The notes beneath the pieces were generated by a model. It saw only the letters and a program-made list of their open reading frames with translations. It searched no databases and was not told where the DNA came from. Shown piece after piece: positions 52,521-57,279 of a stretch of 64,000 bases of DNA; within the stretch, counting starts at the first letter, position 1, and every line of letters starts with the position of its first letter. This DNA is from Candidatus Latescibacterota bacterium (GTDB lineage Bacteria > Latescibacterota > UBA2968). The stretch is from contig OZ241986.1 in assembly GCA_965204375.1 (NCBI GenBank), positions 4,480,001 to 4,544,000 on the forward strand, read 5' to 3'. The position numbers and the translations under genes were made by a program.

Positions 52521-53573
52521 ATGAGCTGGACGGAACTTCAATTCAAAGATTTCGTGACACTACAAAGAGGTTTTGATTTACCAAAGGCCCGTATGGTGGA
52601 TGGTGTTGTCCCTGTCCTCGGATCGAAATCCATCATTGGCTTTCACAATGAAGCGAAAGTGGAAGCACCCGGAGTAGTCACAGGCAGATCAGGATCATTA
52701 GGTTTGGTTCAGTATTCGGAGCAACCGTTTTGGCCTCATAACACTGCCCTTTGGGTAAAGGATTTCAAAGGAAACAGTCCTCGGTTTGTTTACTATAAGC
52801 TTCAGACCCTCAATCTGGAGAGATTTAATGGCGGTGTATCCGTCCCGACACTAAATCGAAATGTGTTGGACACACTCCCCGTCAAAATTCCTAAACGTAC
52901 CTTACAAGACCGCATCGCTTCCATCCTCTCCACCTACGACAACCTGATCGAAAACAACCGGCGGCGGATTCAATTGCTGGAACAATCAGCGCAGCTACTC
53001 TATAAGGAATGGTTCGTCCACCTCCGCTTCCCCGGACATGAACACGTCACCATAACCGATGGCGTGCCGGAGGGATGGATGAAAAAGCCATTGGGCGAAA
53101 TTGCTCCCCTAAATTATGGAAAGGCACTCAAAAAAGATGATCGAATACCTGGACCGGTTCCCGTCTTTGGTTCAAGTGGGATAATCGGAACACATGAAAA
53201 ATCACTTGTTCCCGGCCCCGCGATCATAGTGGGCAGAAAAGGCAATGTCGGAACCACTTACTGGAGCCAGGACGACTTCTATCCAATCGACACTGTATAT
53301 TTTATCGAAGCCAGGTATTGTTCTATTCACCTGTATCATGCTTTGCTTAACACGCAGTTCATCAATACAGATGTCGCGGTTCCGGGCCTGAACCGGGACT
53401 TTGCACACAGCCGACTGCTACTCGTGCCAGACAACAAAATCCTCATACTATTTGAACAACACGCCACAGAAATTTATGAGCAGATCAATCGCCTGACAAA
53501 ATACAACCAAACACTCACCCAGGCCCGCGACCTGCTCCTACCGCGGTTGATGAATGGGGAGATTTCAGTATGA
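52521..53573 (+). CDS. hsdS: Type I R-M specificity subunit
   Basis: Two TRDs, Q.RIASILS.YD.LIENNRRRI conserved region, RDLLLPRLMNGEI end. Confidence 0.95.
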   Translation: MSWTELQFKDFVTLQRGFDLPKARMVDGVVPVLGSKSIIGFHNEAKVEAPGVVTGRSGSLGLVQYSEQPFWPHNTALWVKDFKGNSPRFVYYKLQTLNLERFNGGVSVPTLNRNVLDTLPVKIPKRTLQDRIASILSTYDNLIENNRRRIQLLEQSAQLLYKEWFVHLRFPGHEHVTITDGVPEGWMKKPLGEIAPLNYGKALKKDDRIPGPVPVFGSSGIIGTHEKSLVPGPAIIVGRKGNVGTTYWSQDDFYPIDTVYFIEARYCSIHLYHALLNTQFINTDVAVPGLNRDFAHSRLLLVPDNKILILFEQHATEIYEQINRLTKYNQTLTQARDLLLPRLMNGEISV

Positions 53574-56500
53574 ATCAATCTGAACTTCGTCAGGAACTCG
53601 ACCGTCTATGTGAACTTCCGCACGAGACAGAATGGCTCGAGTTCAAAGAAGCTCAAAATCAGTATGACTTCGATAAGTTGGGCAAGTATTTCTCTGCCCT
53701 ATCCAACGAGGCCAACTTAAAAAAGCAAGCGTGTGGCTGGTTGATATTGGGCGTAAAAGATGATCGTTCGGTTTGCGGCAGTCAGTGGTTCCACGAAAAT
53801 CCAGCCAAACTTGACAAGTTGAAAGAGGGAGTTTCCAATCATACAACCGGCAACCTCACATTTGATGAGATTTATGTGCTCAATCACCCAGGTGGCCGCG
53901 TTGTCATGTTCAAGATTCCGCCCGCCTTACAAGGCATTCCAACCGCCTGGAAAGGACACTGGTATGGACGCAATAGCGAGTCCCTTGGTGCGCTCAGTTT
54001 GCGAGAAATAGAGACAATTCGATTGCAGTCTTCTGACGAGCATCAAACTAATTCAGACTGGAATCAGCACGAATACGCTTCTGAACTGGCGATTGCCAAC
54101 CTTCTTGGCGCATGGAATGAGCTAAACGAAGCCGATTTAGAAATTGTGTGTCAACTTGTCAATGATGAGGATTACGCAAAGTGGATCCCCAAACTGAGGG
54201 AAATGTTACAACAAGCGATAAGCCCTGTGACGTTCATGAATGGAAGATGGCAGGTCATTGATCGAAAAGGAATGTGGCAGGCATTAGGTGGACGTGTTTT
54301 TGATGATACATTGGATGCCCTGAAACAGTGCGCGGTCACGGTATTGTCCGAGCGCGATCCTCAGTTTGACTTACCCTCCGATGAACGTTATGCCGCCAAT
54401 ATCTATAAAAAGGTATTGAAGTACTCAACCGGGCTTCGGAAAGGATTAGCTGAAACGCTGGTACTGCTCGGCACTAATCCCGATGCTCTGACACATTTCT
54501 CACCACGACATCAGGGTTGGAAACCAAAAAATACGGCAGGTCGTGCAGTTCGCGAAATTCTCGAGAATGCGGATTGGGTATTGTGGGGTAGCCTCAATGA
54601 TTTTCTCCCTGTACTGGCAGAAACAGACCCTCGTGAATTTTTGGATGCTGTAGAAAATGCATTGGACAAATCCCCTTGCCCGTTTGAAGAACTGTTTTCA
54701 CAGGAGGGCAATCCTCCATTGGGGAGCAATTACCTCACTGGCCTACTGTGGGCATTGGAAACCCTCGCTTGGGATACTGAACATCTCGTCCGCGTGTGCG
54801 TAATTCTCGGTGAGCTTGCGGCGCGTGATCCCGGCGGTAACTCGTCGAACCGCCCTGCCAATTCACTGGCAGAAATTATACTCCCCTGGCATCCGCAGAC
54901 TACCGCACCCATAAAAAAGCGGGAAGTTGCCGTAAAAACGCTGATAAATGAGGTCCCGGATGTGGCCTGGAATCTATTGATCAGTCTTTTGCCAAATCAG
55001 CATCAGATGTCCTTTGGAACTCGCAAACCTAAGTGGCGAAATACCATTCCCGATAATTGGAAAGAGCGCGTGACTAAAGTGGATTACTGGAAGCAAGTTG
55101 ACTCTTATGCTGAAATGGCGATTGCTATGGCAAGTAATGACATTGATAAATTAACCGAGTTGGTAGGCGACCTCAATCGCCTGCCAAAACCTTCTCTGGA
55201 CAAACTTATCGAGCATCTGGCATCAGAAGAGATATGCGGAAAACCTGAAGATCAGCGTCTAAAACTCTGGACTCAACTAACTCAGCTTGCCTCAAAACAC
55301 AGACGTTTTTCTGACGCAGAATGGGCTTTAAGCGATAAGACCGTTTCCAAAATCGAAGATGTTGCTGCAAAACTCGCTCCTGAAAATCCATTCCATCTTC
55401 ATCGCAGATTATTTAGCCACAACGATTTGGATCTCTATGAAGGAACTTGGGGAGAGCCTCAACAAGCGCAAAAACTTGATCAACACCGTCAAAAACTCGA
55501 TCAACGCCGTCAGCAAGCGATAAAAGAGATTTTAGCTGGTGGTGGAATGGATATAGTATTTCAATTCGCCGAAAGTGTTGAGTCACCCTGGGATGTTGGC
55601 CGTTCTCTAGGTACTATTGCACAGGCGGAAACTGACAAACACATCCTTCCTGCATTGCTGGAAACAGAGAATACCAAACTCGCGCTACTCACAAGTGCTT
55701 ATGTCAGTTGTCGCCAAAATGTCAATGGATGGGAATGGGTTGATGGCTTTGACACCTCGAACTGGTCAGCCGCACAAATAGGTCAATTCCTATCCTATCT
55801 ACCCTTTACCAAAGAGACCTGGCGTCGCGCAACAGATTGGCTCGGCAAATCCGAAAAGGAGTACTGGCGCAAAACCAGTGCAAATCCCTACGAGACAGAG
55901 AGCGACCTCGGCTTTGCCATTGACAAATTGATTGAGTATGATAGACCCCATGCTGCTATCGCATGTCTGAGTAAAATGATACATAGTAACCAGCCATTGG
56001 ACAAAACCCGAAGTGTAAAAGCTCTTATGGATGCCATTTCTTCTTCAGAATCTCCCCAAGAAATGGATGCACATAACATCATTGAAATCATAGAGGCTTT
56101 ACAGGACGATCCAAACACCGACCCAAATGATCTCTTTCAAATTGAATGGGCCTACCTGCGCTTATTAAATCACCACACATCACCGAAGACATTGGAAAAC
56201 CGCCTATCTTCTAATCCAGAATTTTTCTGTGAAGTCATACGCATTATCTATCGGTCAAAAAAGGAAACGGAACCCGCAAAAGAATTTAGCGAACAGGATA
56301 AAGCCATTGCTGAAAATGCATACAAACTTCTTAATCAATGGAAGACACCTCCAGGAATGCAATCGGATGATCAATTTCTAGCGGAAAAATTTACGGAATG
56401 GCTTAACAAAACAAAAGAAGCGTGTGATGAATCCGGGCATCTTGAAGTCGCCCTTCTGAATATAGGAAAAGTTCTCATTCATGCGCCACTTGATCCAGAC

Positions 56501-56893: not shown

Positions 56894-57279
56894 TTTTGGT
56901 TGATACCTCAGTCTGGATTAATCATCTCAATCCTAAAGACCCAAGATTTAGTATTCAACATAGTGAACGACTTAAAACCCTGTTAAATGATAACCAGGTA
57001 TTGGGTCATTCTATGGTAATTGGAGAACTGGCCTGCGGCAATTTGAAGGACCGCCAAACAGTGTTGACAGACCTCGAGAACTTGCCCAAGGCATCGGTTG
57101 CCACCGATGACCATGTGCTCTCCTATATTGAGCAAAAACAACTGATGGGTCGTGGTATCGGCTACGTTGATTTTCATTTATTGGCCGCCACAGAACTGAC
57201 TCGGTCAACCGAACTTTGGGCACTCGATGGACGGCTTATGGATGTGGCTACTGAACTAAATCTCGCTTACCAAATTTAA
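56890..57279 (+). CDS. vapC: VapC PIN-domain toxin
   Basis: MILVDTSVWI.HL, VIGELACGNL, G.GIGYVD.HLLA, LW.LD.RL. Confidence 0.9.
   Translation: MILVDTSVWINHLNPKDPRFSIQHSERLKTLLNDNQVLGHSMVIGELACGNLKDRQTVLTDLENLPKASVATDDHVLSYIEQKQLMGRGIGYVDFHLLAATELTRSTELWALDGRLMDVATELNLAYQI

Follow-up and report, generated by a model that had tools for sequence, protein, structure and literature searches.

A VapB-derived tail on a Schlafen-type defence protein as the probable antitoxin of VapC in a genus of uncultured Latescibacterota

The stretch analysed here (the window) covers 64,000 nucleotides of Candidatus Latescibacterota bacterium (contig OZ241986.1, positions 4,480,001 to 4,544,000 of the forward strand) and contains, between the hsdS and hsdR genes of a type I restriction-modification (R-M) system, a gene for a protein of 1107 amino acids (aa) that is directly followed by the toxin gene vapC. 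The protein joins a Schlafen nuclease domain and a long alpha-solenoid to a short C-terminal tail derived from a VapB antitoxin. It probably acts as the tethered and sole antitoxin of VapC, in a pair that would no longer regulate its own expression. The features concerned are the following, with the paralogue of the large protein, encoded elsewhere in the window, given last.

53570..56893, + strand: fusion gene (Schlafen nuclease domain, alpha-solenoid and VapB-derived tail), from the open reading frame (ORF) list, Pfam and orthologues
53624..53983, + strand: Schlafen domain (SLFN_AlbA_2, PF04326), aa 19-138, Pfam E 5.5e-13
53624..53647, + strand: catalytic-type motif E19-x4-E24-x-K26 (HETEWLEFK; E19-TEWL-E24-F-K26), read from the ORF translation
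54071..56749, + strand: all-helical solenoid of ~900 aa (aa ~168-1060), common to the paralogue and to a very large family, from AF2 and Foldseek
56765..56800, + strand: 12-codon linker (DAEMRMLQNQKL), present in 5/9 species and absent in 4/9 according to the alignment; home of the only nearby in-frame ATGs
56798..56890, + strand: VapB-derived tail, aa 1077-1107, corresponding to ~residues 35-65 of a 65-aa PF09957 VapB
56890..57279, + strand: vapC, encoding a 129-aa PIN-domain toxin, from the ORF list and a Pfam PIN match (E 1.7e-5, above the curated cut-off)
4159..8010, - strand: paralogue of 1283 aa with the same solenoid, a different unannotated N-terminal region of ~390 aa and no VapB tail

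The ORF at 53570..56893 translates into 1107 aa with the C-terminal letters EREAEIYIAEHDAEMRMLQNQKLIERESARRLAQLGGSEPQLQAVPRRRSDPE. Over aa 168-1050 the protein shares 42% identity with the paralogue, whose C-terminal letters are ERYEREAEREAERDIFYD; the paralogue ends about 10 residues past the shared YEREAE, whereas the window protein continues past it for 46, about 36 aa further than the paralogue. The native C-terminus was placed at about aa 1065 because tail-less relatives end 2-15 residues past the pattern ...EAExxxxEH, and the VapB piece is joined straight onto this native end. The fusion stop and the vapC start share the ATGA at 56890-56893. An earlier note on this DNA had described an ORF continuing in frame past the end of the paralogue and overlapping an intact vapC, and the ORF list and the paralogue alignment agree with this description in every particular.

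The last 50 aa of the protein were searched against 5.8 billion proteins, with matches limited to 27-88 aa, and 1005 matches were obtained, of which 120 were listed. Among the 120 matches listed, 118 are PF09957 VapB antitoxins, nearly all of 65 aa, with 77-96% identity over the last ~30 aa of the query and E-values down to 1e-8, which bears out the resemblance to a VapB C-terminal half that had been pointed out before. In alignment A2, which combines the tail with free VapB sequences, the latter read MRTTLNIDD...LVREGLRA and then LIERESARRLAxLGGSEPQLQxVPRRxSDPx, and the residues L, I, E, R, S, A, R, R, L, A, G, G, P, P, R and R are invariant. The tail is thus near-identical to functional-type VapB C-termini across phyla, a likeness that in sequence terms is far beyond chance, and homology identifies it as the C-terminal, toxin-binding half of a common family of VapB antitoxins. 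The N-terminal half of VapB, a ribbon-helix-helix (RHH) DNA-binding domain, is absent from the fusion, and PF09957 matches neither the protein nor the tail. Likewise, zero families were returned by Pfam (E<=10) for the last 50 and the last 31 aa and by NCBIfam (E<=10) for the last 67 aa. A search of the PDB sequences with a free VapB matched only the RHH half of VapB11. The recurrence of the letters RRRSDPE in the N-terminal region of the neighbouring HipA-like protein (57400-57430) was considered as a possible mobile-cassette repeat, and it was judged probably incidental because each copy falls on a GGAG ribosome-binding region ahead of an ATG.

The window genome also appears to hold no VapB element other than the tail. 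A tblastn search with the tail recovered only the tail itself, and zero PF09957 matches were obtained across this genome, so that no free VapB of that family was found, as the earlier note had stated from the window. The toxin gene is intact: among 55 aligned homologues, the acidic residues D5, E46 and D94 of VapC are invariant and D113 is found in at least 90%, and pN/pS values of 0.28-0.54 among five species point to purifying selection. A GGAG stands 9 nt upstream of the vapC ATG, inside the tail codons. A second copy of VapC was not found by tblastn in the window's own genome, and a PDB sequence search with the window VapC returned nothing at E<=0.01. Taken by its components, the pair has what is expected of a VapBC module by predicted function, namely a PIN toxin with acidic residues, an antitoxin element located directly upstream with a gene overlap and a VapB-like C-terminal region; it lacks the N-terminal RHH domain responsible for DNA binding and autoregulation, only residues ~35-65 of VapB being present.

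The association of the tail with VapC was also addressed by structure prediction, as the earlier note had proposed. VapC and the last 50 aa of the fusion, with an alignment for each, were modelled in three runs together with three controls. The complex obtained a score of 0.86 (median of 0.87, 0.02 and 0.86), and the best of the three controls reached 0.00; in the calibration of this score, 58/80 solved complexes and 2/110 mismatched pairs attain the mark. The partner pLDDT was at least 46 and the between-run contact agreement at least 0%. The confident interface comprises residues 21-46 of the 50-aa piece, which is the VapB-derived part only, with no linker, and on the side of VapC it includes residues 6, 46, 94 and 113, so that the active site would be covered. 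The prediction supports binding of the tail to VapC.

The AF2 model of the whole 1107-aa protein has a mean pLDDT of 76.7, and its solenoid (~168-1060) is all-helical, mostly at 75-96. A helix of 48 residues (1041-1088) continues from the native C-terminus into the tail and takes in its first third, and pLDDT falls below 50 in the last 15 residues. The Schlafen domain was modelled with pLDDT below 50 because the alignment is dominated by proteins with other N-termini, and no conclusion was drawn from this part of the model.

Under the proposed mechanism, one ancestral deletion would have led a Schlafen-solenoid protein to capture the toxin-binding C-terminal half of a PF09957 VapB. The last ~26-31 residues would be wrapped around VapC, passing from its lateral groove to its acidic active site, like the VapB C-termini in solved VapBC complexes, and coupled translation would keep each new VapC inactive on the large protein. 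Expression of the pair would follow the hsdS-Schlafen operon, and autoregulation by a VapBC repressor would be absent because the RHH domain was lost. If the supply of full-length protein stopped or the tail were removed, VapC would be free; this could come about through a frameshift or nonsense mutation or a deletion within the 3.3-kb gene, by host-expression shut-off or by proteolysis. The toxin would at least make cells dependent on the intact defence gene, and it may add a second RNase arm.

The distribution of the fusion was surveyed in 168 genomes of the phylum, including 21 genomes of the genus (the window's among them) and 31 of the family. Full-length orthologues were found in nine of the 168 genomes, all of one Latescibacterota genus, with 63-84% protein identity, and all nine have kept the tail. 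In addition, a search with the tail among longer proteins gave 84 matches, 64 of which are Schlafen-plus-tail proteins (54 full-length clusters and 10 fragments). The full-length clusters measure 1058-1139 aa, each with PF04326 and the tail, and the Ex4ExK motif, intact in the window protein, is kept in 54/54 of them. When the nine orthologues were placed in a tree with four relatives as outgroup, they grouped together as a single clade (support 99/99), which indicates a single origin of the fusion followed by vertical inheritance across the genus. The earlier note had offered a one-off deletion as its alternative; the single origin is in line with it, but the fusion is old and inherited, as its presence in nine diverged species and 54 full-length clusters suggests. 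The tail was found in 0/16 paralogue-type loci, and the 150 best representatives of the wider solenoid family yielded no real tail, one pattern match (P0238) proving spurious on inspection.

The toxin gene has a less regular history than the tail. A vapC with an ATGA-type overlap follows the tail in five of the nine species (G000, G076, G090, G091 and G084), so the fusion plus vapC that the earlier note suggested looking for is found repeatedly within the genus. In the other four species vapC is gone, by two different routes: a clean in-frame deletion in G072 and G089, where the large protein ends in ...SDSAYQI or ...SDPTYQI, with YQI being the end of VapC (the same deletion occurs in the metagenomic fragment P0001), and a reduction to the first ~13 codons in G081 and G073. 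Each of these pairs is a supported clade (99/98 and 100/99) nested among vapC-bearing lineages, and hence vapC was lost twice independently. Because the Schlafen gene and the tail remained intact on both occasions, VapC is dispensable for the large protein's own function. No other copy of vapC was found in the four vapC-less genomes (0/4). When the 31 family genomes were scanned, VapC within the genus was confined to the five tail-bearing loci, with one copy each, and a sixth VapC, of 48% identity, was detected outside the genus but within the family, in G063, where it follows a canonical free VapB that shares the C-terminal half. A scan of JGI metagenomes with VapC gave three distant loci, two of them with a free VapB upstream and one (L044) without a match to the pattern. 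The canonical vapBC arrangement in G063 and in two of the three JGI loci fits an origin of the fusion from an ordinary vapBC cassette. In gene content, the toxin never occurs without the tail in the genus and the tail is found without the toxin, which is the asymmetry expected of an antidote. Among the 54 full-length clusters, 17 share their longest-contig size with a VapC cluster (129/130 aa), a count made by eye that serves only as a lower-bound proxy for co-occurrence.

The junction between the large protein and the tail was recovered in data other than the window assembly. The region 56500-57400 is covered with 0 differences by a Logan contig of run X1, possibly the source sample, a contig of run X4 from another study bridges the junction in a relative, and the junction is found in eight further species genomes. 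It is no assembly artefact, and the possibility raised in the earlier note that reads would fail to support it did not materialise. In runs X5 and X23 the contigs skip the 36-nt linker at the joint. The runs with relatives of the locus over 56500-57400 (X4, X5 and X23) are labelled as sponge or marine metagenomes, and they were interpreted only where their contigs cover the stretch. Run X23 is an RNA library in which an 8295-nt contig, equal in length to the contig recorded for cluster P0176, carries a relative of the locus in the short-linker, vapC-less form, although such a library may contain DNA and the contig is no proof of transcription. The presence of the linker also departs from the gene tree among the sequenced species: it is present in G000 but not in its sister G076, and in G081 and G073 but not in their sister G090. 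The linker seems prone to insertion and deletion, and its pattern suggests repeated deletion or recombination between strains.

Several points weigh against an antitoxin role of the fusion. Canonical VapB dimerises via its RHH domain and bridges VapC dimers, and the avidity of this dimerised form is lost in the fusion. The role itself is read from sequence and from a predicted complex, and the tail is identified by pairwise similarity, since the Pfam and NCBIfam models miss it. One of the three complex runs scored 0.02, with a partner pLDDT of 46; the predicted binding may reflect the likeness to solved VapBC complexes, and the helix at 1041-1088 could restrict the freedom of the tail in the modelled protein. 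Moreover, the tail is unchanged in the four vapC-less species, so its retention is not visibly VapC-dependent there, which would be explained by recent losses or by a further role of the tail. The pN/pS of the tail is similar to that of the rest of the gene, 31 codons being too few to decide. Even so, the proposal of the earlier note that the 1107-aa protein is now the antitoxin appears to be the best reading of the tail homology, the intact vapC, the lack of a free vapB and the predicted position of the tail on the active site.

Two explanations would do without such a role or would alter it. The tail could be a decaying relic that neutralises nothing, with VapC inactive, weakly toxic or otherwise controlled. 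Its unchanged persistence where vapC is gone means that conservation alone does not prove a VapC-related function, and the window VapC obtains 30.2 bits against the NCBIfam VapC model, whose cut-off is 80. However, all four acidic PIN residues are kept in a vapC under purifying selection, the tail matches functional-type VapB C-termini almost exactly, the predicted interface covers the active site and the window genome holds no free VapB, which together make a relic improbable. It is more improbable still, to the point of being hardly credible, that the tail is made separately as a mini-antitoxin from an internal start codon, which the earlier note had named as an outcome that would count against the fusion. 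Two in-frame ATGs of the window do lie 9 and 7 codons before the tail (M1069 and M1071), but both are in the 12-codon linker that four of the nine species lack, and no Shine-Dalgarno-like sequence is visible before them. Furthermore, vapC is intact in G076 and G090, and yet in neither do the 30 codons ahead of the tail contain an in-frame ATG, GTG or TTG; in G091 and G084 the candidate starts are limited to a GTG at -9 and a TTG at -16. A conserved internal start is excluded on these grounds.

The other explanations accept the neutralising tail of the fusion and differ in what it would be for. The pair could be an addiction module only, in which a chance deletion happened to keep neutralisation and in which loss of the tail or truncation of the 3.3-kb ORF would poison the cell, stabilising the defence gene or its island with no phage sensing. 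Toxin-antitoxin (TA) modules stabilise genomic islands. This explanation, a real contender although it falls short of an even chance, is favoured by the single origin in one genus, by the repeated loss of the toxin with the tail never lost first, by the vapC gene's own GGAG, which makes translation possible even with the upstream ORF truncated, and by a locus full of other TA genes and remnants. On the other hand, it does not explain the survival of the pair to 63% protein identity in five lineages if loss of the toxin is easy and neutral, and translational coupling would also cut VapC synthesis upon truncation of the upstream ORF. Alternatively, and compatibly with the tethered antitoxin, the protein could work as the guard-type dual-RNase system put forward in the earlier note, in which the solenoid senses a phage cue, the Schlafen RNase is switched on and VapC is freed by conformational change or proteolysis; this addition is tentative and on the whole rather unlikely. 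The features of a prokaryotic Schlafen effector are present (domain, Ex4ExK, fused putative sensor and defence-island setting), the swappable defence effectors on the solenoid relatives (Pfam 5/8, PADLOC 3/8) fit a sensor role, the tendency of the linker to gain and lose codons suggests that the tail is flexibly tethered, and the sequestered RNase released on sensing is a known principle, described for PARIS. Against it, the second arm is dispensable, since vapC is gone in four of nine species with the Schlafen gene intact, the absence of real tails among the top 150 solenoid representatives means that the arrangement is no general design of the family, and no trigger, cleavage site or conformational switch was seen. 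The sequence data do not separate addiction alone from a guard. In its fullest form, the guard would make the solenoid a phage sensor commanding two RNases, the Schlafen domain in cis and the VapC held on the captured VapB peptide, both of them unleashed by infection; in this form it is unlikely, if worth stating.

The tethered antitoxin can be placed among several known systems. The closest is canonical VapBC with a PF09957 VapB, for which the nearest solved structure is M. tuberculosis VapBC11 (PDB 6a7v). Shared with it are the PIN VapC with four acidic residues, the C-terminal peptide LIERESARRLAxLGGSEPQLQxxPRRR and the gene order with overlapping stop and start; the difference is that a 1076-aa Schlafen-solenoid protein replaces the RHH DNA-binding and dimerisation half, and for this reason canonical autoregulation and the bridging of VapC dimers by VapB would be impossible in the fusion. 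In VapBC11, as described in PMC6265470, the RHH domain occupies about residues 1-40, and the segment 41-63 is wrapped around VapC, reaching from a lateral site to the active site; C-terminal peptides alone are reported there to inhibit the toxin. A further parallel is found in the PanA (Panacea) multidomain antitoxins, described as carrying a short Phd-C neutralising element, which on a SUMO carrier still neutralises its toxin (Ernits et al. 2023, PMC10440598). As far as this description goes, the window protein resembles PanA in bearing a short C-terminal neutralising peptide on a larger, proposed sensory domain, but here a full defence protein that brings its own nuclease domain takes the place of a dedicated antitoxin domain as the carrier, a VapB-type peptide is paired with a PIN RNase as the toxin, and the fusion, unlike a promiscuous domain, is confined to one genus.

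By its domain content, the 1107-aa protein is a prokaryotic Schlafen-type defence protein. Prokaryotic Schlafens (pSlfn) are described as defence nucleases with a conserved, catalytic Ex4(E/D)xK motif and diverse presumed sensor domains fused to them (Perez Taboada et al. 2026, PMC13056530). Measured against this description, the window protein has the PF04326 domain, the Ex4(E/D)xK motif, a fused further domain and a defence-gene neighbourhood (hsdS-hsdR and PDC-M03), while pSlfn defence by tRNA cleavage is putative for it. The main text of PMC13056530 does not contain the words 'antitoxin', 'PIN' or 'VapC' and presents no pSlfn as an antitoxin, its 55 architectures being given in supplementary tables beyond the scope of this comparison. 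Defence-associated sirtuin 2 (DSR2), described as having SIR2 at its N-terminus and, towards the C-terminus, an alpha-solenoid by which it senses a phage protein (PMC11850899), resembles the window protein in being a single chain with an N-terminal effector and a large alpha-solenoid, and a solenoid relative (P0210) carries SIR2. The window protein differs in having no Pfam SIR2 match and no PADLOC DSR match, so that the likeness may be regarded as an analogy of architecture with homology undetected. No PADLOC model matches the 1107-aa protein, and none matches VapC. With respect to latent nucleases of other kinds, PrrC is embedded between the type I R-M genes of the EcoprrI locus. In PARIS (AriA/AriB), a latent tRNA-targeting nuclease is described as held inactive by a partner and freed on infection. 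The tethered VapC would thus be comparable to PARIS in the held latent nuclease and to PrrC in the type I R-M embedding; the proteins are unrelated, and the holding element is a relic antitoxin peptide.

The genes around the fusion belong to the same type I R-M system and to other defence and TA families, and those with assigned functions are located as follows.

45943..48015, + strand: hsdM (type I methylase), Pfam N6_Mtase and HsdM_N
52521..53573, + strand: hsdS (type I R-M specificity subunit), Pfam Methylase_S E 2.9e-25; its stop overlaps the Schlafen start
57338..58267, + strand: HipA_C-like kinase, PADLOC candidate system PDC-M03A, E 3e-84
58264..59016, + strand: HIRAN-domain protein, PADLOC PDC-M03B, E 6.3e-80
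59073..62390, + strand: hsdR (type I restriction subunit), Pfam HSDR_N, SWI2_SNF2 and T1RH-like_C

The position inside hsdS-hsdR given in the earlier note is confirmed by these coordinates, with the HipA-like/HIRAN pair lying in between. In order, the locus contains hsdM, a zeta-toxin-like kinase, an MqsA-like helix-turn-helix protein, a ParS/Xre antitoxin with a 56-aa RES remnant, DUF488, hsdS, the fusion, vapC, the HipA-like/HIRAN pair and hsdR, and its gene content is that of a type I R-M locus in which many TA and defence genes are embedded. The HipA-like/HIRAN pair (57338-59016) is conserved beside hsdR in several relatives. At 50648-51345, the ParS/Xre-type antitoxin (176 aa) is followed by the 56-aa C-terminal remnant of a RES-domain toxin, a case in which the toxin decayed and the antitoxin was kept. 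Just upstream of hsdM, at 42312-45895, a second Schlafen/AlbA_2 protein (505 aa; HATPase_c_4, Fic-like_C) is encoded together with a 689-aa PLD-family nuclease-like protein. In two related loci (L001 5921-5989 and L005 5903-5992, protein P0131), ~90 bp before the Schlafen start copy the 5' region of the HipA-like gene (window ~57320-57410), and the copied segment meets the last 15 nt of hsdS at a short homology of GAATGG type. These copies point to rearrangement within the hsdS-hsdR island through short-homology recombination.

The solenoid is far more widespread than the fusion, with 6806 representatives at E<=1e-3. Among eight relatives tested, five carry PNP_UDP_1, GT4-conflict, SIR2_2, DUF4062 or Metallophos at the N-terminus and the other three have no Pfam match; with PADLOC, three of the eight N-termini correspond to CBASS-type or Argonaute/Thoeris-associated effectors. 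Some members (among proteins P0205-P0354) consist of the solenoid only, at ~860 aa. Neither Pfam nor the 2023 PADLOC set provided a model for the ~900-aa solenoid, an ESM Atlas search returned unnamed clusters only, and Foldseek gave generic HEAT/ARM solenoids (CAND1, Pds5 and exportins) at TM ~0.14. This solenoid family with swappable effectors (SIR2, PNP, GT4, DUF4062, phosphoesterase and Schlafen) may be an undescribed family of single-protein defence systems. The first 80 aa of the paralogue give a weak PADLOC match to PD-Lambda-4_A (E 0.0064), and at 1356-8010 the paralogue stands beside a 390-aa protein with weak PADLOC matches to LeoBC/mad8-type GTPases and an unannotated 420-aa protein; this region may be a second defence locus.

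Fused TA defence proteins are already known. In the literature, neither a Schlafen protein bearing a VapB peptide nor one serving as an antitoxin was found described, the supplementary architecture tables of PMC13056530 lying outside this search. Multidomain antitoxins and prokaryotic Schlafen defence proteins are thus established, and what seems new is their combination in one genus of uncultured bacteria. How TA modules become phage defence, and how the release of the toxin is tied to sensing, is an open question of the field. The locus described here would be a natural intermediate that can be read from its sequence, a vapBC cassette minus exactly the DNA-binding half of the antitoxin, in which a Schlafen-type immune protein of 1076 aa has received a neutralising peptide of 31 aa at its C-terminus, an arrangement that has outlived speciation in an uncultured Latescibacterota genus. 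It is a compact system bearing on the use of an immune sensor as an antitoxin, on the policing of a long defence gene by a toxin and on cooperation between Schlafen and PIN RNases. If the solenoid did prove to command both RNases, a TA pair would have been wired into an innate immune receptor, with the receptor taking the place of the DNA-binding domain of the antitoxin.

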